A DNA stretch of 40,001 nucleotides from Escherichia coli (GCA_011601165.1 GCA_011601165.1_4547.1), one strand, 5' to 3'; shown: positions 3,921 through 39,262, counted from the stretch's first letter. Notes: generated by a model from the letters alone, not told the origin. Numbers and translations: made by a program.

Positions 3921-3943
3921 TCTCCCTATAGTGATAGTTTAGT
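3921..3943 (-). promoter_or_regulatory. phage RNAP promoter (phi10 equivalent)
   Basis: ACTAAACTATCACTATAGGGAGA on minus strand, +1 G near 3926, upstream of capsid gene. Confidence 0.85.
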
Positions 3944-3944
3944 C

Positions 3945-4832
3945 CTACAGACTTGATGCAGCTACCTTAGCGCGAACTTCCATCGTGTACTTAGCGTCGC
4001 GCAGGTATCGCGGGTCACTCATAGCCTTAATCATGTCAGCCTTAGAGCTGAATGCTTCGGTCTGAGGAGCCTTAGGTGCGACCACAGGTTTAGCCTGAGT
4101 GGTGATGGTACGCTGAGGTTTAACGCCTACAGCTTTACCAAGTGTCTTTCCAGCAAGATTCAGCAGAGCTTTGGTAGTCGCAATGTCCTTACGAACGATA
4201 GCAGCTTCCAGTGCTTCACGAGTTGACGGGTCGGTTGACTCAAGGTGGGACAGGATTCGATTAAACTGTTCAGCTCCACCAGCGTAGCGAACCACACCAG
4301 CAGCATACTGTTCAGCCAGAGCTTCCTGACCACGGACAAACGAATCTACGAAACGCTTGGTGTAACCTGCTTCCTGCAACTTAGCGTAGGATGCGTCAGA
4401 CAGCTTACCGTCCTTGGCGTATTCAGCCTTGATAGCGGTAATTTCATCAGCAGTGACCTTGCCAGCTTCCACAGCAGAAGACACCATGTCGTCGAATGCA
4501 GCTTCGTTTTCATCCAACGCGGTGACACTTTCAGTCAGCTCTTTCGGTGCATCGCCCAGTTCGATGAACTCAGGCTGCTCACCATCGGTCTCAGACTCTT
4601 CGTCATCGGACTCGTGGTCTTCTTCACCTTCAGTCTCTTCGACGTTCTCGTCTTCTTCTTCGGTAGCCTCTTCGTTTTCGGCTTCCAGTTGCTTGAAGGT
4701 AATAGCGTCGTCGCCATCACGAACAGCTACGTCCTGTTCAAGCATAGACTTCTGGTGTTCGTTCAGGTCCTCAACGGAACCAGTGATTGCATTAGAGCTA
4801 ACGCCAAACTCGGCATAAACTGATTGAGACAT
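3945..4832 (-). CDS. 9: scaffolding protein (T7 gp9)
   Basis: acidic protein resembling T7 gp9 as recalled; start reset to ATG 4832 (MSQSVYAEFGV) with SD AAGGAG; track start 4898 lies upstream of the promoter +1. Confidence 0.85.
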   Translation of the reverse strand: MSQSVYAEFGVSSNAITGSVEDLNEHQKSMLEQDVAVRDGDDAITFKQLEAENEEATEEEDENVEETEGEEDHESDDEESETDGEQPEFIELGDAPKELTESVTALDENEAAFDDMVSSAVEAGKVTADEITAIKAEYAKDGKLSDASYAKLQEAGYTKRFVDSFVRGQEALAEQYAAGVVRYAGGAEQFNRILSHLESTDPSTREALEAAIVRKDIATTKALLNLAGKTLGKAVGVKPQRTITTQAKPVVAPKAPQTEAFSSKADMIKAMSDPRYLRDAKYTMEVRAKVAASSL

Positions 4833-4920
4833 TGAGTCATTCTCCTTTAAGTCGTTAATAGGTAACGGGACAGAGTATGGTGGCTCCCAGTGGCACACTC
4901 TCGGTGAATGTGTGTCCCGT

Positions 4921-4943
4921 TGTTCCTATAGTGATAGTTTAGG
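4921..4943 (-). promoter_or_regulatory. phage RNAP promoter (phi9 equivalent)
   Basis: CCTAAACTATCACTATAGGAACA on minus strand. Confidence 0.8.
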
Positions 4944-6507
4944 CTTGAGCCATGTCCTCACCAGCTCCCTGACCTACAGCAGCGCCCATGTTAGCACCAG
5001 CAGCAGACGCACCGTTGACCACAGCTCCTTGAGCGGATTGTTCAGCCATACGTTGCAACTTCTCGTCCTGGGTCAGCAGTAGACCAGCGGTGTCAATACC
5101 TAAGGCATTCAGCAGTCGCAGCTTCAGGGTCGGCAAGTTAATGTCAGGGTCCTGAGAGAGCTGCTGAAGACCAGTCATCATGTTGATTGCCTGAGTCAGC
5201 TTCTCTAAGTCTTGACCACGACCTAACGCTTCCAGACCGGTGGAGACCGTAGGCTCTACCACTTCTTTCGGAAGGTCAGGAATCATGCCAGCAGACTGAA
5301 GCTGGTTCATCAGCACACGGACGATAGGTAACTGAAGCTCTTGTGACTGTACTGAGTACACGCCACCTAAGGTCGCCTCCAGTTCGCCAGCAACATAACG
5401 AATCTCTTCAGCAGTGACTCGCTCGGCATTACGCTGAACAGCACTATTAAGAAGGAAGGCCCATCCTAAACGTTGCTCGATAGCATCAGCCACCGACTTG
5501 GCAATCGTAAAGTCCTGACCTTTCGTCAGTTGCAGGAAGTTGATGTCCTCAACGCGACCAGCCACGAACTCACCTGTAGCCGCCTTGTTCAGACGTCGAG
5601 GTTGCGTGATACCGTTCGGGTTAACGAGGCCCACCACCTTGGAGGCTACCTTAGCCATTTTGGTGATAGCTTCTGTAATCGTCTCCAGCGAGTTGAGGTC
5701 GCCCAGATACTCCTCGCAGTAAGAACGACCGTAGTCTTCACCATCCAGTCGAACCATTCGTACCGGGATGTATGGACATGCAGTCAGCGGGTAGGAACCA
5801 TCGGTCCCTGCTACCTCAATGCCTTCCACTTCCTCGTAACGCAGGTACTCGTCGTCCTGACGGTAGATGTGCGTATACACTTCAAGCTCGGTGTCAGGCT
5901 CATAGTCGTCTGCGTTGAGTTGAGACTTCACGTCTTCTGGTAGAGCACTAAACGCTACCTTGTCGAGAGTCACAATCTGCAAGATGTTACCGAACGCATC
6001 ACGTTGAACAACGTAAGACACTAAGCGGTACATTCTCATGGGACTGTAGGTCCCCTGTTCAGGCTCTGGAATGTAGAGCAGACAGTTACCGGAGACGATA
6101 AGCTGCTTCAGAGCTTCGAACAATGGCACACGGAAACTGTTAGTCTCCATGTAAGCCATCAACACACGCTCGACCATAGCCAGCCCTTCGTCAACACGAG
6201 CAGCCGCCTCTGAGTCCTGACTCAAGGTCTTGGCCTCATATTCGGAGACCGTCAGTCGCATCCATGGTGACTGAGGGAATAACGCCAACATCAGCTTTGC
6301 AGCCAAGTTGTTCAAGCAGCGAGCACCTACAGCTTGCCATGGAGTGGTGTACTCAGTAGACGAGTTGTCGGACTCCTTGGGAAATAGCGAGGGGATGGTC
6401 ACGGCAGCGCAGTTCTGTGCGCGTGTCTCATACGGCTGTCTTCCGTTCTTCAGTCTATCATAAACTGACTTCGCGCCTTCAGCAGCAAATCCTTCACGTT
6501 CAGCCAT
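4939..6507 (-). CDS. 8: portal (head-tail connector) protein (T7 gp8)
   Basis: 522 aa; N-terminus MAEREGFAAEGAKSVYDRLKNGRQPYETRAQNCA matches T7 gp8 as recalled; SD GGAGG. Confidence 0.95.
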   Translation of the reverse strand: MAEREGFAAEGAKSVYDRLKNGRQPYETRAQNCAAVTIPSLFPKESDNSSTEYTTPWQAVGARCLNNLAAKLMLALFPQSPWMRLTVSEYEAKTLSQDSEAAARVDEGLAMVERVLMAYMETNSFRVPLFEALKQLIVSGNCLLYIPEPEQGTYSPMRMYRLVSYVVQRDAFGNILQIVTLDKVAFSALPEDVKSQLNADDYEPDTELEVYTHIYRQDDEYLRYEEVEGIEVAGTDGSYPLTACPYIPVRMVRLDGEDYGRSYCEEYLGDLNSLETITEAITKMAKVASKVVGLVNPNGITQPRRLNKAATGEFVAGRVEDINFLQLTKGQDFTIAKSVADAIEQRLGWAFLLNSAVQRNAERVTAEEIRYVAGELEATLGGVYSVQSQELQLPIVRVLMNQLQSAGMIPDLPKEVVEPTVSTGLEALGRGQDLEKLTQAINMMTGLQQLSQDPDINLPTLKLRLLNALGIDTAGLLLTQDEKLQRMAEQSAQGAVVNGASAAGANMGAAVGQGAGEDMAQA

Positions 6508-6916: not shown

Positions 6917-7161
6917 ATAGAGATGCCTCCACCAGAGGTACGAGAGACCTGAAGGCTACGCTTACCGGAACGCTTCACTTTCTTCTCGTCAGATGCGGTT
7001 GCTTCAGTATCCACATCCTCCACTTTGTCGTTCGGTACTTCCACTGGTACTGCTGGGGTCTGAGCCTCAACAACCTTAGGTGCATCGCTAGAGCCAAGAC
7101 CCACTGTCCCTAACGTGCTTTTCACCACTTTCTTGAAAGCCTTACTGATTGATTTACCCAC
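6913..7161 (-). CDS. 7.3: tail/host-range protein gp7.3-like
   Basis: 82 aa, lysine-rich N-terminus and C-terminus …SGGGISI resembling T7 gp7.3 as recalled. Confidence 0.65.
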   Translation of the reverse strand: MGKSISKAFKKVVKSTLGTVGLGSSDAPKVVEAQTPAVPVEVPNDKVEDVDTEATASDEKKVKRSGKRSLQVSRTSGGGISI

Positions 7162-8092: not shown

Positions 8093-8153
8093 CTTGAATC
8101 TCCTCTTTAAGTTAAGACTAAAGTCTATCTTATAGTCATATCTTAGGTCCTAA

Positions 8154-8176
8154 AGTCCCTATAGTGATAGTTTAGT
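8154..8176 (-). promoter_or_regulatory. phage RNAP promoter (phi6.5 equivalent)
   Basis: ACTAAACTATCACTATAGGGACT on minus strand. Confidence 0.85.
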
Positions 8177-9817: not shown

Positions 9818-10113
9818 CGTTCGAACTCCACCCGGAAGTTACCAAAGCTCGGCTGGTCAGAGTAATTGCTCAGGTCTTCTTTCAGCCCATCGACGATACC
9901 TTTCTTGAAGACAAGTTCGATTACAGCTTCCAGACCTTCAGTCACGCCAACCTCTACCATCTTGCGCTCAAAACCAGTGGTCTTCTCTCCGTTGAGGACC
10001 TTACGGCTCAGCTCGCAGAGATCCTTCTTGAAGTTCTCCACGTTTTCAGTTGACAACACAGCACCCAGCGAGAACGAAACTCGCATACGTTTGGTCATAG
10101 CCATTAGTGACAC
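9814..10113 (-). CDS. 5.5: gp5.5-like protein
   Basis: 99 aa ORF at the T7 5.5 position, same length. Confidence 0.55.
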   Translation of the reverse strand: MSLMAMTKRMRVSFSLGAVLSTENVENFKKDLCELSRKVLNGEKTTGFERKMVEVGVTEGLEAVIELVFKKGIVDGLKEDLSNYSDQPSFGNFRVEFER

Positions 10114-10385
10114 TCCTTCTTGACAAGTTTGCGCTCGCGGTTCGTCTTAATAACGTGCTCACGCTTAGGAATACATTGCAGATGCTCAACGTTACAGCAC
10201 CCACGGTTCAAGCACAAATGGTCTATCTCGTAGCCATCTGGTATCGGTCCGCACTTCTGCTCCCAGACCCATCGGTGGAACATGAACGCGAACTTATTCC
10301 CCTTTCGGTAGCTTCCCATAGAGTACCGGAAGTACCCGTCATGGTTCCTCTTATGAGATACGCAGACAATACATCCGGTAGGCAT
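10104..10385 (-). CDS. HNH endonuclease (gp5.3-like position)
   Basis: Cys/His motifs …DHLCLNRGCCNVEHL…; start reset to ATG 10385 (MPTGCIV) downstream of the DNA polymerase stop. Confidence 0.7.
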   Translation of the reverse strand: MPTGCIVCVSHKRNHDGYFRYSMGSYRKGNKFAFMFHRWVWEQKCGPIPDGYEIDHLCLNRGCCNVEHLQCIPKREHVIKTNRERKLVKKECH

Positions 10386-10416
10386 GGTGTGAAACCTCAA
10401 GGTCTGAGTGCGTTGG

Positions 10417-12588
10417 TCAATGACACTCTTTCCACGTTGGTCCAATCTTACCCTCCGTATCAAGTTCACACTTGAAGTTATAGAAGCGCCCGACCTCACG
10501 CATTGCCTCTTGCGCAATACGGACGACATCTTCGGCTATCTTCTGAGTACGACACGCAATCTGTAATTCGTCGTGAATCCAAGCCATTAACGCAAAGTCA
10601 CCATCCCATCCGTTACCGTAGCCAGCTTCCTCAAGTTTCTTCTCCGTCAGCACCATCCAGTGCTTACATACTACCGCACCATCACCCTGAAGTAAGGCGT
10701 TCAGTGCTGAGTGTGGAGACCGGATGTGAATGCGGCGACCATCCAGACCTTTCAGCCAGCGACGTTTCCACTTCACGATATTCTCACCATCTACCCACTT
10801 CGATTCTGAGATGAGCGTGTTCTGCACAGCTTCCCTGAGGTCCTTGATAGCTGGTGTACCCTCAATGAATTTCTTCATCAGGGCCGCACCTTCCTTCTTA
10901 CCACCGCCAACTATCAGTCCAATCTTAGCGGCCCCTGCACCATACAGGAACGCATAGATGAACGTCTTAGCGTTGTTACGGAAAGCATCATGGTCGTGGT
11001 TCGACTTATCGCGTGGGACGTTAGGTGCTAACCCAGCGTTGACTGCGTTGGCCCAGTGGATATCACCTTCGACCACAGTCTTCGCATAGTCGCCACCATC
11101 AAACGGAGCAGCTCGGTTTCCCAGACAACGAAGCTCAAGACCTGAAGCATCCACGCCTACTTGAATCCAAGGGTCTGGCTTACCGTCCTTCTTGTTCCAC
11201 GCTGCACCGAAAGCACCACGGCAAGTCTCACCATACGGAGCACCGTTAGCCGGGACCTGAGCCATGTTTGGTGAACTATGGGTCGCACGTCCGGTTACTG
11301 CACCACATGGGTTGATTGAACCGTGCATACGTCCGTCTGGACCTACAAGTTTCAACCATGCGTTCTTACCTTCAGCAGCCTGACCTATGCGCTTCTGGAC
11401 CACCAGATACTCACGGACCAGCTCTACGCAAGCCTGAGCCTCTGCGTCTGGTAACTTAACGTGTTCTAACGTCTCGTCATCGACTACAGGTTTCCCGGTG
11501 TCAGTGAAGTCCACAGGCTCCCAGCCACGCTCCATCAGGACTTTCGCTAAGTGGTCTCCGCTTCCCGGATTAAACTCAACGTAAGTGATTGGCGTGAATG
11601 GCGCTCCCTCCATCGTGTCTCGCGTATCGCGTTCACGAGGTTCAAGACCTAAGCGTTGAGCTTTGTTCTTAGGCTTCTTAAAGATGCCACCGACCTTAGG
11701 ATACACGACTCTCGGATACTTCGGAAGGTCCTTACCTGTTCGTGGATGCCTGAAGAACTCCTTGCCTCCCTTTGGTGCATACCAGCTACCGAAAGTCGAG
11801 CGCAGCTTGTCAAGCAACTCCGCACGTTTGACAGTGAGTTCACGATATAAGCCTTCGACCATCTCGGTGTTCATCGGATAGCCGTTACGCTCCATCTTCG
11901 CACAGGTCCACGCAGCATCATGTTCCAGACGCAACGCATAAATCTGTTCGAAAGCGAACTGTTCAGACTGGAAGTAATACTTGTCAGTCAGGAACTTCTT
12001 GAACAACGCCAGTGTAACCACAACGTCTTGAACGTTATAGTCCAGCATCTCCTGAGACGGGAACAACCATTCGTCACCAGCCTTATATTCGATACCTTCG
12101 GCCTTGCACTTGGCAATGTAATCGTGTTTGTACTCACCCTTCATCTCACCTAGACGATAGCCCCAAGCCTCAAGAGACTGGCGTCCCATCAGCTTAGGAG
12201 GCAGACGACCAGCTTTCACTGCGCCCATGTCTGAGAACTTAATGTTGGGATACATCAAGCGGCCCAGAACCAAGGTATCAATCATCTTGTGTTTCGGGAA
12301 GTTAAATCGTTTCCCAAAGTACAGACGCTTCAGTTTGTCTATAGCTGGTACGTCATAGTTGATACCGTTATGGAAGACCAACATACCCGTAGGTGTTGCC
12401 GCGATCTCTTCCACCTTCTGTACATACTCTTTGAAGCCACCGACGATACCGACCATCGGCGCTACCCCATACTTAAGGGTCTCATTCGACTCGGCATTAA
12501 TCAGGACCCCACAATGGAACTGGGACACGGTGTCAAGGAGACCGTTGGTCTCGATGTCCGAACCCCAAATATCCTTAAGGTCAAACAT
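10417..12588 (-). CDS. 5: DNA polymerase (T7 gp5)
   Basis: 723 aa; exonuclease and polymerase motifs; resembles T7 gp5 as recalled (…DIETNGLL…FHNG..YDVPA…KLMERQSLEAWGYRLGEMKGEYK…). Confidence 0.95.
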   Translation of the reverse strand: MFDLKDIWGSDIETNGLLDTVSQFHCGVLINAESNETLKYGVAPMVGIVGGFKEYVQKVEEIAATPTGMLVFHNGINYDVPAIDKLKRLYFGKRFNFPKHKMIDTLVLGRLMYPNIKFSDMGAVKAGRLPPKLMGRQSLEAWGYRLGEMKGEYKHDYIAKCKAEGIEYKAGDEWLFPSQEMLDYNVQDVVVTLALFKKFLTDKYYFQSEQFAFEQIYALRLEHDAAWTCAKMERNGYPMNTEMVEGLYRELTVKRAELLDKLRSTFGSWYAPKGGKEFFRHPRTGKDLPKYPRVVYPKVGGIFKKPKNKAQRLGLEPRERDTRDTMEGAPFTPITYVEFNPGSGDHLAKVLMERGWEPVDFTDTGKPVVDDETLEHVKLPDAEAQACVELVREYLVVQKRIGQAAEGKNAWLKLVGPDGRMHGSINPCGAVTGRATHSSPNMAQVPANGAPYGETCRGAFGAAWNKKDGKPDPWIQVGVDASGLELRCLGNRAAPFDGGDYAKTVVEGDIHWANAVNAGLAPNVPRDKSNHDHDAFRNNAKTFIYAFLYGAGAAKIGLIVGGGKKEGAALMKKFIEGTPAIKDLREAVQNTLISESKWVDGENIVKWKRRWLKGLDGRRIHIRSPHSALNALLQGDGAVVCKHWMVLTEKKLEEAGYGNGWDGDFALMAWIHDELQIACRTQKIAEDVVRIAQEAMREVGRFYNFKCELDTEGKIGPTWKECH

Positions 12589-14610: not shown

Positions 14611-14633
14611 CATCCCTAAGGTGATAGTTTAGG
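14611..14633 (-). promoter_or_regulatory. variant phage RNAP promoter upstream of gene 4
   Basis: CCTAAACTATCACCTTAGGGATG; differs from consensus at -3/-4, probably weaker. Confidence 0.55.
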
Positions 14634-16728: not shown

Positions 16729-16751
16729 CTGTCCTACAGTGATAGTTTAGG
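16729..16751 (-). promoter_or_regulatory. phage RNAP promoter (phi2.5 equivalent), variant
   Basis: CCTAAACTATCACTGTAGGAC. Confidence 0.65.
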
Positions 16752-16905
16752 TCTCAGGACGAATCCGTCCGACCACAAACCCTGCATCCTCATACTCTTG
16801 GGACTTCAGGGTAGCCTCTTCAAGAGACTTTGCGTACACCGGAACCTCGAAGGATTGAACTCGACCCTCAAGCTCCACGATGTACTTCTTCTCAACCTCA
16901 GTCAT
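16747..16905 (-). CDS. 2: host RNA polymerase inhibitor (T7 gp2-like)
   Basis: 52 aa [52 protein letters not shown]; SFEVP.YA..L.EA…GF.V.R.RP matches T7 gp2 as recalled; SD AAGGAG. Confidence 0.75.
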
Positions 16906-17686: not shown

Positions 17687-17709
17687 TTGTCCTATAGTGA
17701 TAGCTTAGG
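17687..17709 (-). promoter_or_regulatory. phage RNAP promoter (phi1.5/1.6 equivalent)
   Basis: CCTAAGCTATCACTATAGGACAA. Confidence 0.75.
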
Positions 17710-19245: not shown

Positions 19246-19279
19246 ATGGCTAAATCTCCAGTAGTGTTTATTTAGGGTT

Positions 19280-19320
19280 AATCATGAAGGCCACGACTTT
19301 TAGTCATGACCTTTAGTCTA
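19280..19320 (-). promoter_or_regulatory. conserved RNA hairpin, candidate RNase III site (R1.1 equivalent)
   Basis: mRNA AAGGTCATGACTAAAAGTCGTGGCCTT. Confidence 0.5.
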
Positions 19321-19341
19321 ATCCTATAGTGATAGTTTAGG
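19319..19341 (-). promoter_or_regulatory. phage RNAP promoter (phi1.1 equivalent)
   Basis: CCTAAACTATCACTATAGGAT. Confidence 0.8.
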
Positions 19342-19631: not shown

Positions 19632-22313
19632 TTAAGCGAATGCAAAGTCTGAAGACAAGATGTCTTCGATATTCAGTTTACCTTTCTTCGGAAGCTCAGG
19701 CAGCTTGTCGCGTTGGCTCTCATGAAGTTGGTATTCAAACTGCTCGTAGAAGTCAAGCAGCACATCGTTGTCGCGGTAGGTCTCGACCATCGTCTCACGG
19801 ACACCCCGGAACAGATACTCAGCGTCAGCCGGGATGGTCCCGAAGCTATCGTGAATCACTGCGAACGACATCACGCCATACTTACGGTGAGTGTGGACTA
19901 CAGTCTTGCGGAGGTGGCTACCATCTTGTGAGTGGACGAAGTTCGGGCTAATGCCTGACTCCTGCTTGTGCTTATCCAGCTCTTTCTTCGTGCCTTTATT
20001 GACTGTAGGCTGAAGGTTGAATGACCCTAAGAACATCAGGTTCAGACGCGTGGTATCCTTCTTGCGGTATTCCTGCCATACCGGGAACCCATCAGGTGTG
20101 ATCCAGTGTACCGGAAGGCAAGGCTTCAGGATTTCGCCAGTCTTCTTGTCCTTCACTTCAGCAGCCAGCAGCTTGGCAGCACCTTGAAGCCACTTCATCG
20201 CGTCAACCGCAGCAACTACGGTCACGCTCACAGCTTCCCAAATCATCTTAGCCATGAAGCGAGACGCTTGGCTTGGCTCGGTGAACATAGCGCCAGACCC
20301 TGAGTCAATCGCTGGCATTACGATGTCCTCATAAACTTGGTCTGCGAAACCATACTCTTTCGACCCGTAGGCCAGAGTCATGACTGAACGCTTAGTGACC
20401 TTGCGTGACATGCCGTAAGTCAGCCACTGCCGGGCCAGCTCTCGTGTCCCCAGCTTGAGACGTTCGGTAATCTCACCAGTTTTCTTGTCCTCGTGAGTTA
20501 CCATCTCGTTGTCCGTGCCGTTAACCAGCAGGACTTTAAGCTTCTCCTCAATGCGGTCAGATACGATGCGGTAGATGTCTTGGACCTTACCGGAAGGCGT
20601 CAGGTTTACTGCATGTCCACCGATGTGATCACGCAGCATCGCGCTGAAGTGCTGAATCCCAGAGCAGGACCCATCGAATGCTATCGGCAGCGAGCAGGAG
20701 TAAGACAATCCGTGGTGCATTACGCCAGCATACTCGAAGCAGAACGCTAGGAAGCAGAACGGAGAGTCTAACTTGCCCCACCACTCAATGCTGTCCATCG
20801 GTGCCTTAGCAGTAGCCATGATGTTGTCGTGGTTGTCTTCCACCCACTTGATGCGCTCCTCGAAGGTGACTTTATCAATACCCGCACAGTTTGCACCGTG
20901 GACCTTCAGCCATTTGAAACCGTCAGCACCAATAGGCTTACCGACTGCCAGAGTAAGGAGACCCTTCTGCATGTCGTTACCCTGAGGGTTGAACATCGGC
21001 ACAGCGTAGACGCGACCGCGCCAGTCCATGTTGTACGGGAACCAGATGGCCTTGAACTGGGAGAACTTGTTCGCCTGGTTAACGATAAAGCTCAGTGACA
21101 ATCTGCGTGACTGCCGGGCCTTCTCTCGGCGGTAGATACCAGCAGCAGCCTTCTTCCATGCCTTCAGTTCTTCCTCGGTCTCACCCGCATAGTCTTCAGG
21201 CTTCAGCGGCTCCATCTGAGGGATGTCGTCAATAGGCGTGTTGTTTAGCTTCTCGACCGTGTTCACCACTTCCAGCACCTTCTTGTTTACCTTCCAAGGT
21301 GTATTCTGGATGATGTTCACAGCGTCATAGACTTCAGGCATGTACACGTCCTCGTAACGCGCCACCGCAGACTTAGACCCTAAGCGAATCAGTGGTAGCG
21401 GTCTGCGACCTTTGGCCCAGTACCCACCGCCTACAACACCAGTCCACGGCTTAGGTGGAACGACGCAAGGCTGGTATACTGGAGCGATGCCCGCAAGGCT
21501 GAAGCCTCGTTGTGCCATCTTCTTGACCCAGAAGTCTGACAGGTGGATCATCTCGACGTCAGCCGCTGCATTGCCAGCACCGTAACGCGTAAGCTCGACC
21601 AGTTGTGTAGACTGAATGACAATCTCAAGCATCTTGATTCCAACGTGGACAGCCTCGGTCGGACTCCAAGTCCCCCACGCATCTTCTAGTTGACCTTGCT
21701 CCAGCATGGACGTCTCAACCGCTTGCATGTAGGCTTTCTTGTAGGATGCCCCTGCTCGCTTGTTCAGGTTATCAGCTATCGCCTTCTTGAAGTGCTCCTT
21801 CTCCTTGTCACGAATGCGGCCGAATCGGATTTCATCCTCAAGTGTGCGGCCTATCGCGGAGGCCATCGGTGTAATCGGTATCCCTTCAGGCTTGATCAGC
21901 TTGGAGAGGATGACCTTCAGTATGATAACCGCAGCAGACTCACAGGAGATGCGCAGAGAGCGGTCCTTTACGGCCTTCTCTTCAGTGCTCAACATGGTGA
22001 ATGCTACGCTAGGACGAGAGGTTGACAGCTTCCCGTCTGGACCTTCATGCCACTCCTTGACAGCTTGCGCAATCTTAGGTACCAGAGTCTGCATCAAAGG
22101 CTTGGCGACCTGATTGTCTGCCAGTTCCCCGCGCTCAGTCTGTCGCTCAAGGTTCTTGATGAAACGTCGCTCGCCTTCAGTGTATGCCTCATGCTCAAGC
22201 TGAAGCTGTTTGACTGCAAGGTCTTGCCCGTAGTGGTCAGCCAGCAGGTTAAACGGCTCAATAGCGTTAGATACATCAGAGAAGTCGTGTTTGTCAATGG
22301 AGATGACGCTCAT
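19632..22313 (-). CDS. 1: single-subunit DNA-directed RNA polymerase (T7 gp1)
   Basis: 893 aa; …HDSFGT…, C-terminus …DFAFA; colinear with T7 RNAP as recalled; recognition loop region differs from T7. Confidence 0.97.
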   Translation of the reverse strand: MSVISIDKHDFSDVSNAIEPFNLLADHYGQDLAVKQLQLEHEAYTEGERRFIKNLERQTERGELADNQVAKPLMQTLVPKIAQAVKEWHEGPDGKLSTSRPSVAFTMLSTEEKAVKDRSLRISCESAAVIILKVILSKLIKPEGIPITPMASAIGRTLEDEIRFGRIRDKEKEHFKKAIADNLNKRAGASYKKAYMQAVETSMLEQGQLEDAWGTWSPTEAVHVGIKMLEIVIQSTQLVELTRYGAGNAAADVEMIHLSDFWVKKMAQRGFSLAGIAPVYQPCVVPPKPWTGVVGGGYWAKGRRPLPLIRLGSKSAVARYEDVYMPEVYDAVNIIQNTPWKVNKKVLEVVNTVEKLNNTPIDDIPQMEPLKPEDYAGETEEELKAWKKAAAGIYRREKARQSRRLSLSFIVNQANKFSQFKAIWFPYNMDWRGRVYAVPMFNPQGNDMQKGLLTLAVGKPIGADGFKWLKVHGANCAGIDKVTFEERIKWVEDNHDNIMATAKAPMDSIEWWGKLDSPFCFLAFCFEYAGVMHHGLSYSCSLPIAFDGSCSGIQHFSAMLRDHIGGHAVNLTPSGKVQDIYRIVSDRIEEKLKVLLVNGTDNEMVTHEDKKTGEITERLKLGTRELARQWLTYGMSRKVTKRSVMTLAYGSKEYGFADQVYEDIVMPAIDSGSGAMFTEPSQASRFMAKMIWEAVSVTVVAAVDAMKWLQGAAKLLAAEVKDKKTGEILKPCLPVHWITPDGFPVWQEYRKKDTTRLNLMFLGSFNLQPTVNKGTKKELDKHKQESGISPNFVHSQDGSHLRKTVVHTHRKYGVMSFAVIHDSFGTIPADAEYLFRGVRETMVETYRDNDVLLDFYEQFEYQLHESQRDKLPELPKKGKLNIEDILSSDFAFA

Positions 22314-22382: not shown

Positions 22383-22405
22383 TAGTCCTATAGTGATAGT
22401 TAAGT
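22383..22405 (-). promoter_or_regulatory. phage RNAP promoter directly upstream of the RNAP gene
   Basis: ACTTAACTATCACTATAGGACTA; about 75 nt before the gene 1 ATG. Confidence 0.7.
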
Positions 22406-22671
22406 CAGAAACATTTACATATCAGTGGGTTAGCGTGAAGATGACTGAAGTCACCATGAGTCGTGTGCTTGATGGTTGATCGTTGGTCTATCGCCTTCCA
22501 GCCTGAGACCAGAAGTTTACCATCTTCGGTGATCGGTCGTCCACCATACGCCAGACGCAGCAGTTCGGACTTATGGCCCTCAGCTATCATGCGGCGCTGT
22601 AAGAACATGTCACGCTGCATCTGCTCCACACGGCTACGGCTAGATGGTTTGTTAGTGTATGCGGTTTTCAT
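22405..22671 (-). CDS. hypothetical early protein, 88 aa
   Basis: ORF coupled to upstream gene (ATGA overlap). Confidence 0.55.
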   Translation of the reverse strand: MKTAYTNKPSSRSRVEQMQRDMFLQRRMIAEGHKSELLRLAYGGRPITEDGKLLVSGWKAIDQRSTIKHTTHGDFSHLHANPLICKCF

Positions 22672-23028: not shown

Positions 23029-23400
23029 CTACACCTCCACCGCTACAGTGGTCATCTTGGTTACAGTCATCCCACCAGCAAGCTCAACCGCATAGCGTAT
23101 CGCCTCCTCTTTGGACTTGAAGTCCTTTCCTGCAAGGTGGTAAATGTCGCCATTAACTACTTTGTTTGGCCTGCGACTCACTGATACAGCGTTACTGAGG
23201 CAAAGCTCACCCTTTAACCACTGAGCGTGCCAGCGCATTACGCTCTTATCTGATACGCCGAAGTCCCTTGCCACCATCCCCACCATGGATTCAAGTCCGG
23301 AGGTACCGTATTGTGGCTGGCGAACTAAATCATACGCCTTCGCTACTCGGATTTTAAACTCGACTGTGTAGCTGTTGCGGGTTTTCGCGTTGGTGCTCAT
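23029..23400 (-). CDS. early DNA-binding protein with transposase-type helix-turn-helix, 123 aa
   Basis: …YTVEFKIRVAKAY…MVARDFGVSDKSVMRWHAQW… resembles IS3-family OrfA N-terminal HTH; no DDE domain. Confidence 0.6.
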   Translation of the reverse strand: MSTNAKTRNSYTVEFKIRVAKAYDLVRQPQYGTSGLESMVGMVARDFGVSDKSVMRWHAQWLKGELCLSNAVSVSRRPNKVVNGDIYHLAGKDFKSKEEAIRYAVELAGGMTVTKMTTVAVEV

Positions 23401-24343: not shown

Positions 24344-24372
24344 ATCGTACAGCTTTTAAAGGAGGCTGTCAA
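24344..24372 (-). promoter_or_regulatory. host sigma70 early promoter (T7 A3-like)
   Basis: TTGACA-17 nt-TACGAT then GTACCACA, matching T7 A3 as recalled. Confidence 0.65.
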
Positions 24373-24490
24373 CCTGTTATTCTTTTACGCGGTGAGTGAC
24401 CGAATTCGACTCACGGCTAGTGCCTTATCCTTGGCTGGTCTCGGGCAGGTTTCTCGGTTCCTATCCCTACGCCATCTTGCTACGTGGTAC

Positions 24491-24520
24491 ATACTACTTT
24501 AAGTCGGTACAGCTTGTCAA
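24491..24520 (-). promoter_or_regulatory. host sigma70 early promoter (A2-like)
   Basis: TTGACA-18 nt-TAGTAT then GTACCAC. Confidence 0.55.
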
Positions 24521-24661: not shown

Positions 24662-24780
24662 TAGGTAATTTGAAATAATATTGATTGAGCTATCGTCGGC
24701 CCCATGGTGTAAGAGGATATAGTCTTTGACTAACATGTATTAGACCTTAAGTCTATAGCCATTGTGTCTATTAACTGTAG

Positions 24781-24875
24781 GTCTCTGACTGTAGGTGTTG
24801 GTGTCTTATGGTTGAGACAGTAGGTTAGTGAGGCTGTAGGTTGTGACTTATGGTTGAGACTTATGGTTATACAGA
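24781..24875. repeat. left-end short direct repeat array
   Basis: CTTATGGTTGAGAC twice plus CTGTAGG units on plus strand. Confidence 0.6.
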
Positions 24876-24876
24876 T

Positions 24877-25076
24877 AGGGACTCGGAGAAGACCAATAGT
24901 CCCGACCTATCGTCCCGACCTCCAGCCATAGCCTCAACCTATCGTTGACCTGAAGGCTTGACAGCTGGTCAAACCTTATGATAGACTGGAGGTATAGACC
25001 GAAGGTCTAGGGGTAGGGCCTTTGGTCGGACTGAAGGAGGGCCTATGGGGAGACTTGAGGTTCTTGAACTGTGAGA
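24877..25076. repeat. candidate direct terminal repeat, single collapsed copy (T7-like genome terminus)
   Basis: minus strand TCTCACAGT…CCCCATAGG… and …TCCCTATCTGT resemble the T7 terminal-repeat start and end as recalled; boundaries inferred. Confidence 0.3.
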
Positions 25077-25670: not shown

Positions 25671-25693
25671 CTTCCCTATAGTGATAGTTAAGT
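25671..25693 (-). promoter_or_regulatory. phage RNAP promoter (phiOR equivalent)
   Basis: ACTTAACTATCACTATAGGGAAG, after gene 19. Confidence 0.8.
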
Positions 25694-25787
25694 CCAAACT
25701 CCTTGTAAAACAGTAGGTTAGACTGGTAGTAACTATAGGTTACTAACCGCGTATTCATGCAGCTTTCACCTATAGTTATTCATTCAG

Positions 25788-27562: not shown

Positions 27563-28354
27563 TTAAGAGTTAAAGATGCGGTCAACGCGAACAGTCAGGG
27601 AGGTCAGAGTAAGGTCCTCAGACCCTGTAACTGCAATGCCAAGCATGATGCCAGTAGTAACGAACGAGTCGTCTGTATTAGCTATGTAGCTATGGATGGC
27701 TGCCTCACGAATGGTGAATAACTGCTGGTCATCTGTGTCCGTCACGGAAGACATGGTAGTGTTATCGGGTCTACGCAGCTGCACTCGCCACTTATGGGCT
27801 GAGGCTGTAGGGAACTCACCAGCGAACCGAACGACGAAGTTTACACCACTGAGTCCCTCTTTAGCTGGGAACATCATCTTTCCTTCGGAGATAGTAACGA
27901 CGCCGCTGTCCACTCTCTTCACTAAAGGTAGAGTCATTAGGTTAGTGAACTGACCAGCCGCACACACTTGGGTTCCTGACCAGTCGAAGGTATCCAGAGA
28001 ATACTCAGCGTGGGATACAGGACGTGACTCCCGATAAGTATACTCTACCTTAACAAGTCCGACGCCGCTGTTATTCAGCTTGGTGACTTTAAGAATCAGG
28101 AAGTCGTCTTCTGTGGTACCAACCGCTTCCAGACGTACACTGCCTGATTGTAGAGGCCAGCCGCCACCATCGGAGAAATTACCAGTAGCAGACGTACCGT
28201 CGCTTAGTGTAATCCTTGTAGACTCGGCGTTAGCTGGGACCTTCACGTATATTGTACCAGATAACAAGTGACCGGATGCGTTCTTCAGTCCAGATGGGGT
28301 ACCAGTAGCAAAATGCCAAACTACGTCAGTTCTCAAAGTAATAATATTACCCAT
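27563..28354 (-). CDS. hypothetical protein, 263 aa; no T7 counterpart at this position
   Basis: ORF starts 8 nt inside Rz 3' end; Gly/Ser/Thr/Val-rich, predicted beta-rich; no motif recognised. Confidence 0.6.
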
Positions 28355-29472: not shown

Positions 29473-31917
29473 TTAATTGTACCAACTTGCCTGACTCTGG
29501 GACTTGCTATCACACCTTAATGCGAACGTGTAATACGCAGCCGCCCGCCCGGGGAACGTAAATACAATCCTTGCTGATTGTTTGTCACCAGGTAGAACAG
29601 GCTGCCAGTCAAATTCACCAAACAAGTTAGGGTTGTAGTCTGCGCTATGAATAGTTGCGGTGTCAGGTGCAATAATATCATCACCGTACATCTTTGTTAT
29701 CCGTAACGAACTAGAGCCATCGAATCTCTGCAGTACATACCGGGCGTGCCCGTTAGGATTTGTTCCGTTGTTTGTTGACCCCCTAACTGTAATGTCTAAA
29801 TACGCAACCTGAGTATCATAAAACGACGTTATTTGAGCCTGCCATGTCTGCATACCATCCGGCATAGGAACGGTGACCGTACCCAGTATAGCCGCAGCCG
29901 GAGTTCTTGATACATCAGAACCCTGAGGATACGGGACGTGGGTAATGAAACATTCAGTTTCTGCTGGTCTACCGTTGAACAACGCCGCTTGGATAACATC
30001 CTTCACCCGCGCTGGCTTAATCCGGATGCCTGAAACGTAGATGTTTGTAGCATTTGCTCCATAGGTACTTATGTAAATGGTTTTCCATCCAGCACCTACC
30101 AATGTACCCGCCCATGCGTCCAGTCCTTTTGAGTTTGTTCGACCGCCCTTGACCTGATAGCCGGAGGTTTCGGTAATGGCTTTACCCTGATTACGTTTTA
30201 GTGTGTCTCTGTTGCGCGCCGCTGGTACCCGTGCTGCATACTCAGGGAGCTTTTCGTTAGCCTCTTCAGCAATGGTTACATATGCACCGTCAAGGATCCC
30301 GACTATATCCAGCGTAGCCAGTTCACATCCTAGATAAAAACTGAATGAAATTCTGGCTGTGGAATTAGCGGCAAAATCAGCAACACCGCCATTGGTCAGG
30401 TACGAATTACGCGTATAGGCCATCGTGGCACCTTTATTCCAGAACCCAACTTTTGACGAGCTTCTGCCGACCTGCTGAGAATAAAGTCCGGTTACTGGGA
30501 CGATGTTTTGCACATAACCACCAGCCAATACGAATGAGGCCACTGCTCGACCGTATTTGAAATAACCCTGCTTATTGAAATGCGCCCCATCTGAGTATAT
30601 ACCAGCATATTCAGCATATTGCGTGACAATTTCTGATTCAAATACCGGGCACCCATAAACCTCGGCGATTGACTGTACAAACTGATAATATGGTGCATTA
30701 AAGTTATTACCGGAGTTAAATTGTAGTGCCGTTGTTGTGTGTAAAACTACGCCACAACCCCAATCAATGTATCTCTTTACTAGTTTCTCGATGTACTCAC
30801 AGAACTGTTCAAATGTTGAACCTAACTTACCCTCTGTGTCATTAATGCCGAGCATTATATGAGCGACATGTGCATTTGGGTTAGTTGTCCATCTATCAAA
30901 ACTTGCCTTTGCAGTGTCACCGGAGAAACCACGGTTAATAACAGTTACCGTCGAGTTGGTCATTGCATTTAAAGAATTTTGCAGTTGTTTAGGATATGTG
31001 ATAGGTGCATGAGTTGCCCAATCGCCGTTGTCTGCCGGTACTTTGTCCGCCGAGTTATTGTCATAGCCCGCCGTCAGGCTATCACCAACGCAGACTATTG
31101 TAAGTGGCTCGCCAGAGCGTAAACGTTTATTAGCCTGACCAAGTAACCTACGGTTTTTGTGCCGATATTTAGCTGACGCCAAGCGCTGAATCTCTGCCCC
31201 AATACTATCATCCTGATAAGACTTAGAGTCGTCATAACCCACCAGCCCAGCGCCAGTTCCTTCATTTAAAGCCGCTCTCAACGAGGCATCACCAACGCTA
31301 ACCCATGCACCCAAACCAACGCCGCCGGTTGAAGCTGGGGTTGAACCAGCAGGCACTGTTTTTGGTAGGCCACCATCCCAGCGGTAATACTCACCATCCG
31401 CTTCCCATAGCAGGACCTCGCTCCATGTTGTAACGTTGAAGCCTTTCTCGAAGGAGCGACGGGTAATATAGCCAAGTAGACCTGCCTTGACACTCGAAGA
31501 GATTCGTCGAGCTTCGTCCTCGCTATCCTTAGCGCTAGCAGCAGAGATACCAGCAGCATCGGCATACTCCTTCGCTAAGTCAACAGTTTGGTCTCGACCT
31601 TCTTCTGCAATATGGATAGCCTGAAGCTCTGCATTGGTCAGGTCACTAGCTGTCAACACTGAGCCATTCCTGAAGTCTACCACTAAGTCAGTCCCAGTCT
31701 GACGGTGAATACGAACGATGTCGAAACCTGATTGGTCAACCAACATCTCAATCATCGTTGGGTTAAGGAATCGGTAATCTCGACCAACTTCCAGTACACG
31801 GTTCAGGGTAGGGTTAGAGCTATTCACCAGCGTAACAACAACAAACGTTCTGGCTAGGTAGTCGAACTCAATCCTGTACTGAGTGTTTCCTGAAGGGAAT
31901 TGTGTAATCGTGGACAT
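29473..31917 (-). CDS. 17: tail fiber/tailspike: T7 gp17-type N-terminal anchor plus GDSL/SGNH esterase domain and C-terminal beta-rich region
   Basis: N-terminus …FDYLARTFVVVTL…LVVDFRNGSVL… as T7 gp17; SGNH blocks GDSLT (near 31069-31083), GINDT, DGAHF. Confidence 0.85.
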   Translation of the reverse strand: MSTITQFPSGNTQYRIEFDYLARTFVVVTLVNSSNPTLNRVLEVGRDYRFLNPTMIEMLVDQSGFDIVRIHRQTGTDLVVDFRNGSVLTASDLTNAELQAIHIAEEGRDQTVDLAKEYADAAGISAASAKDSEDEARRISSSVKAGLLGYITRRSFEKGFNVTTWSEVLLWEADGEYYRWDGGLPKTVPAGSTPASTGGVGLGAWVSVGDASLRAALNEGTGAGLVGYDDSKSYQDDSIGAEIQRLASAKYRHKNRRLLGQANKRLRSGEPLTIVCVGDSLTAGYDNNSADKVPADNGDWATHAPITYPKQLQNSLNAMTNSTVTVINRGFSGDTAKASFDRWTTNPNAHVAHIMLGINDTEGKLGSTFEQFCEYIEKLVKRYIDWGCGVVLHTTTALQFNSGNNFNAPYYQFVQSIAEVYGCPVFESEIVTQYAEYAGIYSDGAHFNKQGYFKYGRAVASFVLAGGYVQNIVPVTGLYSQQVGRSSSKVGFWNKGATMAYTRNSYLTNGGVADFAANSTARISFSFYLGCELATLDIVGILDGAYVTIAEEANEKLPEYAARVPAARNRDTLKRNQGKAITETSGYQVKGGRTNSKGLDAWAGTLVGAGWKTIYISTYGANATNIYVSGIRIKPARVKDVIQAALFNGRPAETECFITHVPYPQGSDVSRTPAAAILGTVTVPMPDGMQTWQAQITSFYDTQVAYLDITVRGSTNNGTNPNGHARYVLQRFDGSSSLRITKMYGDDIIAPDTATIHSADYNPNLFGEFDWQPVLPGDKQSARIVFTFPGRAAAYYTFALRCDSKSQSQASWYN

Positions 31918-31963: not shown

Positions 31964-31986
31964 GTTTCCTATAGTGATAGTTTAGT
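31964..31986 (-). promoter_or_regulatory. phage RNAP promoter (phi17 equivalent)
   Basis: ACTAAACTATCACTATAGGAAAC. Confidence 0.8.
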
Positions 31987-35873: not shown

Positions 35874-38156
35874 TTACTCCTTACCAATTAGTACGTTTGC
35901 GATACCCTCCAGTGAGACGTCATTGTACATCCCACCGCGCTTCTCGATGTTGGCCTCTCGGTCAGCTCGACGTTTGTCACCAGCAGCTTTAGTCCCGACG
36001 ATACGCGCTCGCTTGTTAGCGTCACGTTCTGCCTGAGCATATGCGGCATCCTGTGCCTTCTGCTGTTGTTCACGGTACAGTTTACCAACCAGTTCTTTAT
36101 CGTATCGAATGCGTAGGGTTCCGTTAGCGCTCTGCAGGAAGACCGAGCCGTTCTGCTCAACTACAGAGAGCTGAGAGTTCACTACCCAAGGATTAGTCTT
36201 GATGAGCTGCTTGCGAGCTATGTCGATAATGTCTCGACCCACCTGCCAAGACTCAGGGTTATCCCCGACCATAAGTTGATGTTTGGACACCATGCCTATG
36301 GACTTACCATCCTGACCCTCATCGGTGAAAGTCACGGTGTTTTCATTCAACCACTTCTGGGTATTCTGAGTTGCAGCGTCAGCGTTACCTGTCCTGTAGT
36401 ACCATGAGTCCCATACTTTTCGTGCAGTCATCTTCAATTCAGTCGGTATCCGTGAGAGTTGAGTCTCCTTTGAGTCATTCGTCAGCTCTCTCCACTCCTT
36501 GTCTGCCTCACTTCGCATCTCACGCGATAAACTTGCAGCTTGCTTATCAGCTTCAATCAGCGTCTGAGTGTCCAGACCTATCTTGTCCATCTGATCGAAA
36601 GTCGTGAACAATTGGGCCTGCTCAGGGTAGAGGGCCGCGAAGCTGGAAGGGTCCTGAGTGTAGACACGACGAAGAGACTCGAAGCGTTTCATCTTGTCTG
36701 GGTCGTACTGTCCACGGATGACCGCAGCTTGCCACTCACCAGCAGCATCCTGAGTCAGCGTCTGGAAGGCATTACGGAAAGGACCATTGTTAGTATCAGC
36801 CCTCAACAATGCCACCTTCTGAGCGTCCTTAGCAGCCTCAGGGATGTCCATCTGGTCAATCTGCTGTAGCTTGGCAGACGCATAGTTGTTCATGTCTGAA
36901 CGCTTGAACTCTCCTGTAGCTTCAGAGACCGGAAGGTCCTCATAGTTGGTGGACACATTGTCCCCAGCCAGACGTCGCTGATACACTTGGTCAATGACCA
37001 GTTGCTTGTTCTGGGTCTGGATTAACTTCGTGTTCTCCTTCGCCTGTTCAGCAGACTTACGCTTGACCGCTTCCAGTAGTGTGGCTTCTGCGTTAATGAG
37101 CATCTGGCGCTGAGGAGTGAGTTCTTCACCGGGTTGAAGCTGGTTGTTCTGCTCCTTGAGTTTCTGAATCTGGGCAAGACCAATGGTTGGGTCATCCTGA
37201 AGAATTGCAGACTGAACGCCTAACGCCAAGTCTTCCTGATACTTAGCCACCAGTTTATACTCAGTACCTTGGGCCTCAACCATAGCAGCATTGAAGATGT
37301 CAGGTCCTACAATCTCTTCGATGGTAGCGTCAACACCATTAAGGGTGATACGCTCGCCACGGACTTGCTGTAGGAAGTTTGAGCCTCCTGACTTCTGGAT
37401 TGCGTCACGGACCGTCTGGGTGATGACCTCTCGTGCTCTCTGGTCCGAAGGTATAGCAGCAGTCGTCAATCCATCCCTAAGGTAGGCCATGAAGGTCTTT
37501 CCAGACTCAGGCGAACGCATCAGGTCCCCATCGTTAAGGAACGAGTTCATCTCAATACGAGTGTTCAACATTGCTGTCTCTTCAGACTGCTTGCTGAAAT
37601 ACTTATTGAAAGACCCATAGATGGCGATGTTTCGGTCTGTGATGTTATCGTTGAACCCGCGCTGGAAGAACTCATCTGTAGGGTTAATACCTGCCTCTTC
37701 AGCATAGGACTTAGCGGCGTCCTGAAGTCGCTGGTGGCGATACTCTTCCATCTCCTGACGTGTACGGAACTCACCGTTCTGAATCTTAACGTTAATCTCG
37801 TCATCCACAGCAAAGGCAGCGTTACGACCTGTCTTGACTCGAAGTGCTTCCATAGCGTAAGGGTCATCCTGATATAGCAGTGTGCCGTTCTGAATAGCCT
37901 CACGTCTTTGCTGAGGTGTCAGCTTACGGATAATCTCGTTAGACCGCTCGTCGGCCCGTGTCTTCTCCTCGTCTTTGAACTGCTTGTATAATCCAGTACC
38001 AGACTCAACGAAGTTGGTTAACGCCCTAGCCAGACCTGAGTCACCAGTTGGAGCCTGAACGCTGGCTGCTTGATAGTTGACGGCGATAGTTTTACCCGGC
38101 GCTCTGCCACGACCCATAGTCCGATTAGCCAGAGCTGATTCAATATTACTAGCCAT
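35874..38156 (-). CDS. 15: internal virion protein C (gp15)
   Basis: 760 aa ORF at the T7 gp15 position, similar length. Confidence 0.85.
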   Translation of the reverse strand: MASNIESALANRTMGRGRAPGKTIAVNYQAASVQAPTGDSGLARALTNFVESGTGLYKQFKDEEKTRADERSNEIIRKLTPQQRREAIQNGTLLYQDDPYAMEALRVKTGRNAAFAVDDEINVKIQNGEFRTRQEMEEYRHQRLQDAAKSYAEEAGINPTDEFFQRGFNDNITDRNIAIYGSFNKYFSKQSEETAMLNTRIEMNSFLNDGDLMRSPESGKTFMAYLRDGLTTAAIPSDQRAREVITQTVRDAIQKSGGSNFLQQVRGERITLNGVDATIEEIVGPDIFNAAMVEAQGTEYKLVAKYQEDLALGVQSAILQDDPTIGLAQIQKLKEQNNQLQPGEELTPQRQMLINAEATLLEAVKRKSAEQAKENTKLIQTQNKQLVIDQVYQRRLAGDNVSTNYEDLPVSEATGEFKRSDMNNYASAKLQQIDQMDIPEAAKDAQKVALLRADTNNGPFRNAFQTLTQDAAGEWQAAVIRGQYDPDKMKRFESLRRVYTQDPSSFAALYPEQAQLFTTFDQMDKIGLDTQTLIEADKQAASLSREMRSEADKEWRELTNDSKETQLSRIPTELKMTARKVWDSWYYRTGNADAATQNTQKWLNENTVTFTDEGQDGKSIGMVSKHQLMVGDNPESWQVGRDIIDIARKQLIKTNPWVVNSQLSVVEQNGSVFLQSANGTLRIRYDKELVGKLYREQQQKAQDAAYAQAERDANKRARIVGTKAAGDKRRADREANIEKRGGMYNDVSLEGIANVLIGKE

Positions 38157-38167
38157 TAGTCCTCCTC

Positions 38168-38755
38168 TTAGCTATGACCTGTAGGTGTGCCTTTGGCAGC
38201 ACTAATTGGTGCAGCACCGCCAGAGCTGGACGCTCCAGAGATAGATTTACCAGCAGCGTACCCTTGCATCCCGGCGTTAGCAACATTAAGTGCATGAGCT
38301 AGTGGGCTGGTCTTGATGATTTTACCTTGACCACGGATAGCAGACTTGGTGTTCTCAATGTTGGCGATACGGTTCCCGAAGATAGCCGCATAGTCACGGT
38401 TGTAGCTTTCGGTAATCCCGGCCCTCTCCTTGACTGTGTCTCCCGCGACCTGACGTTCAATCCTGTCCATAGAGTTACCTTCCAGACCTGACTCAGCTAC
38501 CGCAGCTCGGACCATGCCCTGATTGCGGATACCGTTCAACGTGGTCTCTGTCAGTTCAGCCATCTGCTGTTCCTTCAGGTCTCGCTCCTGCATCTTCAGG
38601 TTGGCGTCAGAGTAGTTCATCTGCTTAACCATCTCCTGAGCCTGACGGTTCTGAGCGTCGATAGCAGCACCCTCAGCTTTGGCCTGACTAGAAGCTGACA
38701 TAGTGGCACCAGCTACAGCCATAATACCCATGCCGATACTTACTGGCTCGCACAT
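38168..38755 (-). CDS. 14: internal virion protein B (gp14)
   Basis: 195 aa, starts MC…, resembles T7 gp14 as recalled. Confidence 0.85.
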   Translation of the reverse strand: MCEPVSIGMGIMAVAGATMSASSQAKAEGAAIDAQNRQAQEMVKQMNYSDANLKMQERDLKEQQMAELTETTLNGIRNQGMVRAAVAESGLEGNSMDRIERQVAGDTVKERAGITESYNRDYAAIFGNRIANIENTKSAIRGQGKIIKTSPLAHALNVANAGMQGYAAGKSISGASSSGGAAPISAAKGTPTGHS

Positions 38756-39210
38756 ACGTCCTCCTTAGAGATAGTGAATAGTTGAAAACGCTCACCAGTT
38801 ACCGGGCTTACAGTCCACTCATCATGGAACTTAGCGCCAAGCAACTTCAAGAATTTAATGTGAGACTTATTGCCTGACCACACGTAGTTCCAGATGGTCC
38901 CGTATTGGTCTAACATTAAGTCCCTGTACTCAGAGATACACTTTATGAACTCTCTCTTCTCTTTAGGTCTCAGCTTGTAGACCAGACCTGAAGTCAAGAA
39001 CCATACGTTATCCCCTTGGTTTCCACCATAGGCAAACACTTCACCTACACCGTTCGTTAAAACCACAGATGATGGGGATAGGTGCTTAAGCAGTCTCTCA
39101 GAGAGACCCACGGTTGACCCGTAGTTTGCTTTGCACTCATTAACATCATCTGCTGAAAGATGCCGCATAAAGTAGTGGACATCTGGTTCCGTAGCCTTGC
39201 GAATATACAT
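38740..39210 (-). CDS. 13: internal virion protein A (gp13)
   Basis: 156 aa ORF directly downstream of a phage promoter, at the T7 gene 13 position. Confidence 0.75.
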   Translation of the reverse strand: MYIRKATEPDVHYFMRHLSADDVNECKANYGSTVGLSERLLKHLSPSSVVLTNGVGEVFAYGGNQGDNVWFLTSGLVYKLRPKEKREFIKCISEYRDLMLDQYGTIWNYVWSGNKSHIKFLKLLGAKFHDEWTVSPVTGERFQLFTISKEDVCASQ

Positions 39211-39239
39211 AAAGTCTCCTTATAACCTTAAGGGCCTAT

Positions 39240-39262
39240 AGTCCCTATAGTGATAGTTAAGG
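39240..39262 (-). promoter_or_regulatory. phage RNAP promoter (phi13 equivalent)
   Basis: CCTTAACTATCACTATAGGGACT. Confidence 0.8.

Follow-up and report, generated by a model that had tools for sequence, protein, structure and literature searches.

An eleven-member promoter family and its K1F-type RNA polymerase in a Kayfunavirus genome

The stretch of DNA analyzed here, filed under Escherichia coli (GCA_011601165.1) and referred to as the window at its full length of 40,001 nucleotides (nt), is a complete genome of a Kayfunavirus, a K1F-like phage of the T7 group, in circularly permuted and reverse-complemented form with a single copy of the terminal repeat. Many Kayfunavirus records matched a 25-kilobase query by megablast at 92-94% identity over ~90% of its length, placing the phage within the genus, and 39 of 40 K1F proteins queried by tblastn were found in the window, all on the minus strand, in the K1F gene order, and most at 90-100% identity. 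Gene 12 is split exactly by the window ends (residues 1-547 at 1643-3 and residues 549-786 at 40000-39287), and the promoters aside, there are no direct repeats of at least 40 nt in the window; these two features together indicate a circularized single-copy assembly. A duplicated terminal repeat and overlapping window ends were both ruled out on the same grounds, namely the lack of any long direct repeat and the exact wrapping of gene 12. Spread over this genome are eleven copies of a 23-base pair (bp) element, which are almost certainly promoters for the single-subunit RNA polymerase (RNAP) that the phage itself encodes. The members of this system are given below by their coordinates in the window, with a slash placed before the +1 base of each promoter.

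39240-39262 (motif 39244-39261), minus strand: phi13 promoter, +1 G at 39245; CCTTAACTATCACTATA / GGGACT; T at -14; 35 nt upstream of gene 13.
31964-31986 (motif 31968-31985), minus strand: phi17 promoter, +1 at 31969; ACTAAACTATCACTATA / GGAAAC; in overlap with the 3' end of gene 16, 52 nt before gene 17.
25671-25693 (motif 25675-25692), minus strand: promoter at the phiOR position, +1 at 25676; ACTTAACTATCACTATA / GGGAAG; T at -14; 112 nt past the gene 19 stop codon, ahead of the genome-end region.
22383-22405 (motif 22387-22404), minus strand: promoter upstream of gene 1, which encodes the RNAP, +1 at 22388; ACTTAACTATCACTATA / GGACTA; T at -14; 75 nt before the start codon.
19319-19341 (motif 19323-19340), minus strand: promoter at the phi1.1 position, +1 at 19324; CCTAAACTATCACTATA / GGATTA; 3' of gene 1 and a 66-residue open reading frame (ORF), and 5' of a gene 1.1-like gene, gene 1.2 (dGTPase inhibitor), and the ligase gene.
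17687-17709 (motif 17691-17708), minus strand: phi1.6 promoter, +1 at 17692; CCTAAGCTATCACTATA / GGACAA; G at -12; 30 nt upstream of gene 1.6.
16729-16751 (motif 16733-16750), minus strand: phi2.5 promoter, +1 at 16734; CCTAAACTATCACTGTA / GGACAG; G at -3; 45 nt before gene 2.5, in overlap with the 3' end of gene 2.
14611-14633 (motif 14615-14632), minus strand: phi4 promoter, +1 at 14616; CCTAAACTATCACCTTA / GGGATG; C at -4, T at -3; 56 nt before gene 4, which encodes the primase/helicase.
8154-8176 (motif 8158-8175), minus strand: phi6.5 promoter, +1 at 8159; ACTAAACTATCACTATA / GGGACT; 67 nt upstream of gene 6.5.
4921-4943 (motif 4925-4942), minus strand: phi9 promoter, +1 at 4926; CCTAAACTATCACTATA / GGAACA; in overlap with the 3' end of gene 8, 28 nt before an ATG-less ORF start at 4898 and 94 nt before the K1F-homologous gene 9 start at 4832.
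3921-3943 (motif 3925-3942), minus strand: phi10 promoter, +1 at 3926; ACTAAACTATCACTATA / GGGAGA; 110 nt upstream of the major capsid gene.
19632-22313, minus strand: gene 1, single-subunit RNAP of 893 residues; Pfam RNA_pol (E = 1e-106) and RPOL_N.
20001-20054, minus strand: specificity-loop hairpin of this RNAP, residues 754-771 (T7 Q744-I761), TTRLNLMFLGSFNLQPTV.

An earlier reading of the window, hereafter the original prediction, had proposed an eleven-member promoter family, and both approaches taken here recover that number. The 18-mer CTAAACTATCACTATAGG has 11 matches with two or fewer mismatches, all on the minus (coding) strand, where 0.02 would be expected by chance; none of 100 shuffles reached 11. 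The weight-matrix scan that the prediction had suggested as a check was run on both strands of the window with a matrix built over -22 to +8, and it returned exactly these 11 sites at 33-42 bits; next came a single degenerate copy at 17 bits, with all other positions at 10 bits or lower. Given this gap in score, the family has exactly eleven members. The prediction had placed its copies at 3921 and so on, which are the exact +6 ends of the 23-bp elements (-17 to +6) on the minus strand and fall 4 nt below the motif starts, and it had written the motif in the correct reading sense, leaving the strand implicit.

The degenerate copy (+1-equivalent 8130, ~8125-8147, minus strand; CCTAAGATATGACTATAAGATAG) was considered as a twelfth member and rejected as a functional promoter, since it scores 15-17 bits and carries A at +1 and G at -7. 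It lies 29 nt downstream of the phi6.5 start, is identical in phages K1F and Bas105, and may represent a leftover tandem promoter or belong to a structure in the 5' leader.

In form and placement, the eleven copies have the hallmarks of T7-group promoters. They are a conserved element of ~23 bp with the core CACTATAG and a G start, present in multiple copies per genome, and all 11 are co-directional with the genes, stand ahead of gene blocks, and are syntenic with those of T7. Most +1 sites fall 28-110 nt upstream of a gene (genes 1, 1.6, 2.5, 4, 6.5, 9, 10, 13, and 17), the others being those at the phi1.1 and phiOR positions. Positions -16, -15, -13, -11 to -5, -2, -1, +1, and +2 are invariant among the copies. 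The bases from -12 to -7 read ACTATC in 10 of the 11 and GCTATC in the remaining one, as in K1F-type promoters, while GGGAGA, the initial sequence of T7 class III promoters, occurs at phi10 only.

The same genome encodes a cognate, T7-like single-subunit RNAP that is 98.5% identical to K1F gp1, 94% identical to the RNAP of the Kayfunavirus Ro45lw, and 62% identical to T7 RNAP; ~220 phage-collection records hold an RNAP at least 80% identical to it. All residues after 738, including the whole specificity loop, are identical to those of K1F. A recent study (PMC11880802), summarizing the structure of T7 RNAP bound to its promoter, lists residues 746, 748, 756, and 758 as making base-specific contacts, names positions 748, 756, and 758 as the dominant specificity determinants across T7-like RNAPs, and includes a K1F node in its network. 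In T7 numbering, the window RNAP carries R746, N748, N756, and Q758 and thus has the K1F-type combination of N, N, and Q at the three dominant positions; T7 has R756, with the other three residues the same. The original prediction had said that the recognition-loop region differs from that of T7, and the peptide quoted for it, LNLMFLGSFNLQPTVNKGTKKELDKHKQESG, corresponds to RNAP residues 757-787, with the R756-to-N change lying in the loop. The T7-type combination, CGAC at -12 to -9 read by R756 and N748, is not what this phage carries.

These observations suggest the following mechanism. Early transcription, which takes in gene 1, would be carried out by host RNAP from sigma-70 promoters, and the phage RNAP would then bind the eleven elements. 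Its specificity-loop β-hairpin would read -12 to -7 in the major groove, the change from R756 to N would match that from CGAC to ACTA at -12 to -9, and the retention of R746, N748, and Q758 would go along with unchanged bases at positions -8 and -7. Melting would occur at the conserved TATA (-4 to -1), and transcription would start at the first G of GG. In such a scheme, phi1.1, phi1.6, phi2.5, and phi4 would serve a DNA-metabolism unit and phi6.5, phi9, phi10, phi13, and phi17 a virion and lysis unit, with phiOR as a right-end promoter. The promoter 75 nt before gene 1 may provide positive feedback on RNAP synthesis, and the deviant spellings of phi1.6, phi2.5, and phi4 would most likely set a lower strength for class II genes. 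Two further kinds of predicted signal belong to this layout.

24344-24520, minus strand: two early promoters resembling sigma-70 sites, at 24520-24491 and at 24372-24344, that precede gene 0.3; both are consensus matches only.
2458-2501, minus strand: Tphi-like terminator between genes 10 and 11, with a 17-bp stem followed by a U tract.

The GenBank record of phage EcoDS1 has host RNAP promoters annotated at the place equivalent to the sigma-70-like sites and a terminator at the position matching the Tphi-like hairpin. Together with the eleven sites, these signals make up a complete transcription map of the genome, the practical value of which lies in annotation.

Both initiation at +1 and discrimination against T7 have been shown in the literature for components nearly identical to these. 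Takatsuki 2025 (PMC12272871) found that the purified RNAP of Ro45lw transcribes in vitro from ACTTAACTATCACTATAGGGACT, with +1 at G, and defined the minimal promoter as ACTTAACTATCACTATAGGGA. The tested Ro45lw promoter is the same as phi13 of the window from -16 to +6, and the Ro45lw loop differs from that of the window by M to L and T to S at non-key contacts, the key residues being the same. Temme 2012 (PMC3458549) moved the K1F hairpin into T7 RNAP (Q744-I761) and the K1F bases into the T7 promoter at -12 to -7, and this graft gave an active RNAP/promoter pair that is orthogonal to T7. In the source data of Segall-Shapiro 2014 (PMC4299498), the PK1F promoter gave an activity of 2448 when paired with the K1FR fragment, compared with 19 for the T7 fragment and 5 when no fragment was supplied. 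The engineered T7(K1F) RNAP and PK1F share with the window phage the same loop segment and the same -12 to -7 bases, but the enzyme is a chimera on a T7 backbone acting on T7 promoter flanks, and in the split-polymerase context M750R was also needed. The PK1F part presumably reads TAATAACTATCACTATAGGGAGA.

Some points weigh against reading the family as eleven working promoters of distinct specificity. According to PMC11880802, the T3, K1F, and N4 variants of Temme have limited orthogonality and relatively high non-cognate activity, so that "distinct" is not to be taken as absolute. Activity at all 11 sites of this phage would follow by extension from the transcription evidence on its relatives. 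For the phi1.6, phi2.5, and phi4 variants, no strength measurements were found in the accessible literature.

The orthogonality data could be taken to suggest that the promoters are real but that cross-recognition with T7 makes a distinct specificity an overstatement. The -8 to +2 core is indeed the same in both phages, the loop chimeras just mentioned act on non-cognate promoters, and the T7 fragment on PK1F exceeds background (19 against 5), which indicates some cross-talk (PMC4299498). We consider this view very improbable all the same: four consecutive bases read by the loop (-12 to -9) differ, contact residue R756 is N, a search of the T7 genome for the window motif finds nothing at 3 or fewer mismatches, the measured discrimination is greater than 100-fold (2448 against 19; PMC4299498), and Temme 2012 describes the pairs as highly orthogonal (PMC3458549). 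Specificity distinct from that of T7, as originally predicted, is thus supported by the K1F-identical loop, by ACTA at -12 to -9, and by the published discrimination between K1F and T7 loops and promoters. Harder still to credit, to the point of being nearly negligible, is the notion that the repeats mainly serve some other role, be it recombination, packaging, replication origin function, or RNA processing, and merely resemble promoters. Some copies do sit in larger structures (a 12-bp inverted repeat at phi13 and a hairpin at phi1.1), and three share an upstream element at -45 to -35; these extras, however, are found at few copies, whereas the 23-bp element is found at all eleven. Biochemical work has verified the same sequence as a promoter for an RNAP that is 94% identical (PMC12272871), strict co-orientation with genes and T7-syntenic placement are what promoters predict, and promoter function would hold even if some sites had a second role as well.

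A narrower alternative concerns the deviant copies. These are phi4 (C at -4, T at -3), phi2.5 (G at -3), and phi1.6 (G at -12), each located before class II genes. The original prediction had noted that the copies at 14611 and 16729 deviate between -4 and -1, as they do, and had called them class II, an assignment that fits their placement before genes 4 and 2.5; it left unmentioned that the copy at 17708-17691 has G at -12 and that those at 22404, 25692, and 39261 have T at -14. That phi2.5 and phi4 are weak promoters is plausible. They might instead be dead relics (+1 at 16734 and 14616), with genes 2.5 to 6 transcribed by read-through only: the substitutions fall in the melting region at -4 to -1, and no terminator was noticed between phi1.6 and phi2.5/phi4, a stretch not scanned systematically, so that read-through is possible. 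We regard this as improbable, though less so than the alternatives above. The exact variants, including that of phi1.6, are kept at the same, orthologous sites in all six genomes (the window and five comparison genomes, spanning several species), in the midst of flanks that diverge by 11-19%, which argues that the deviant spellings are maintained rather than decaying. Both sites also stand at the standard distance of 45-56 nt before essential replication genes. In T7, too, functional class II promoters show deviations close to the start site: the base at -2 is A in phi1.5, 1.6, 3.8, 4c, and 4.3, and that at -1 is T in phi2.5. Read as promoters, the conserved variants and the copy before gene 1 offer small targets for studying how promoter strength is tuned in a T7-group phage that is not T7 itself.

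A broader proposal, which we put forward tentatively and judge possible yet on balance unlikely, is that the promoter set is a regulatory programme fixed across the genus rather than a uniform family, as the frozen deviations, the subclass with T at -14, and the gene 1 promoter might suggest. If so, the frozen deviations could encode a graded hierarchy of strength, and the subclass formed by phi1, phi13, and phiOR, which carries the upstream motif CTAAYYYAYTG, could mark a second role, such as replication or packaging. Through the gene 1 promoter, the RNAP gene would act as a natural "autogene" under positive feedback, an arrangement that T7 does not have. No discussion of these ideas was found in the accessible literature.

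Several observations bear on the surroundings of individual copies. The motif CTAAYYYAYTG lies at exactly -45 to -35 in the three promoters with T at -14, phi1, phiOR, and phi13 (22423-22433, 25711-25721, and 39280-39290, minus strand). It has 4 matches in the window against 0.36 expected, the fourth (24818-24828) being within a short-repeat array near the genome end, and it is conserved in K1F and Bas105. We know of no role for sequence upstream of -17 in promoters of this kind. The phi13 promoter is enclosed by a perfect 12-bp inverted repeat, AAGGGCCTATAG / CTATAGGCCCTT (~39229-39279, minus strand), and phi1.1 is followed by a 12-bp hairpin (~19270-19300, minus strand); their fold z-scores are -2.7 and -2.8, respectively. 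T7 has RNase III processing sites, R13 and R1.1, at the positions of these structures.

Elsewhere in the genome, other features can be placed relative to K1F and its kin. The gene 17 tailspike (29473-31917, minus strand, 814 residues) has a K1F-like N-terminal adaptor (residues 1-226, 87% identical), whereas its C-terminal part is not the K1F endosialidase and instead combines a Tail_spike_N domain with a GDSL/SGNH lipase-acylhydrolase domain (residues 274-452). This domain makeup suggests an esterase-type, receptor-modifying spike and a host different from K1-capsulated E. coli. A 75-residue ORF located between genes 11 and 12 (1653-1880, minus strand) matches Pfam DUF3850/ASCH; called an "RNA-binding protein" in other Kayfunavirus records, it is present in EcoDS1, CR44b, Bas105, and PSK1 and is not found in K1F. 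A 263-residue ORF between the spanin and terminase genes (27563-28354, minus strand) matches only phrog_17779, a family of unknown function, and has neither a Pfam match nor a K1F counterpart. In the early region, a 123-residue ORF (23029-23400, minus strand) has no K1F counterpart and no family match at all. Short imperfect repeats with units such as ACCATAAGNC and ACCTACAG form an array at 24780-24960 (minus strand), on the stretch that separates the presumed terminal repeat from the early promoters, and resemble the arrays beside the T7 terminal repeats. An Rfam scan of the whole window returned nothing at the gathering threshold.

Endonuclease genes account for further variation. The gene at 10104-10529 (minus strand) probably encodes a homing endonuclease, whereas the HNH gene of K1F lies within gene 5. 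Bas105 (L003) has a twelfth full promoter, ACTAAGCTATCACTGTAGGATAG (16754-16782, +1 at 16776), before an endonuclease gene inserted upstream of its DNA polymerase gene, and it appears that this mobile gene travels with its own phage promoter. Neither that gene nor the twelfth promoter is present in the window.

Compared with T7, the phage has a similar overall plan and a different recognition sequence. A consensus from 17 annotated T7 promoters was aligned position by position with that of the window. Both have the 23-bp architecture, the +1 G, A at -13, and the same bases from -8 to +2 (core TCACTATAGG); T7 has CGAC at -12 to -9 against ACTA in the window phage, and -17 to -14 differ as well. 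The original prediction had placed the match to T7 at -8 to +1 (the consensus identity in fact runs to +2), had opposed A, C, T, A to C, G, A, C at -12 to -9, and had mentioned differences further upstream, which are seen at -14 to -17 with -13 the same; the alignment agrees with it on each. T7 also has promoters before gene blocks 1.1, 1.6, 2.5, 6.5, 9, 10, 13, 17, and OR, and its Tphi terminator after gene 10 has its like in the window phage. With 17 promoters in T7 against 11 here, the window map is that of T7 with fewer members, and unlike T7, the window phage has no phiOL-like copy at the left end. Before gene 1, the T7 record has only the E. coli C promoter (3113) annotated, whereas the window has a phage promoter there.

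Closer relatives leave little that is new in the pair itself, which is the already known K1F-type system, carried here by a new isolate from a genus that has been heavily sampled, and not a new family. The consensus of the promoter repeat in another Kayfunavirus, Sparklingdew, is given as CTWAACTATCACTATAGG in a 2026 genome paper (PMC13298934). The original prediction had also suggested a comparison with the promoter sets of T7-group phages, and in our comparison, the same 11 sites were found in K1F, EcoDS1, CR44b, PSK1, and Bas105, at the same gene positions and with matching spellings site by site. In GenBank, the records of EcoDS1 and CR44b each carry 11 annotated "phi" phage promoters that coincide with the motif matches; the site homologous to the gene 1 upstream promoter is annotated as a promoter in both, and that homologous to the phiOR-position copy is annotated phiOR in EcoDS1. 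Two promoters are annotated within the 8 kilobases examined of the Ro45lw record. Across the window, K1F, and Bas105, the three genomes covered by this statistic, the 23-bp cores are 98.4% identical, compared with 88.9% for the 30-nt flanks upstream and 81.2% for those downstream. The K1F promoters were reportedly described together with the K1F genome by Scholl and Merril in 2005. With the K1F-type pair annotated in reference Kayfunavirus records, used in synthetic biology, and biochemically characterized for a congener, the family carries little weight as a discovery. In K1F itself, all 11 sites recur in an unchanged gene order, each spelled as in the window from -16 to +2; the two promoter sets diverge at a few sites, and there solely at -17 and between +3 and +6. 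The two genomes differ elsewhere, for instance in the gene 17 C-terminal domain, the extra small ORFs, and the HNH endonuclease genes.

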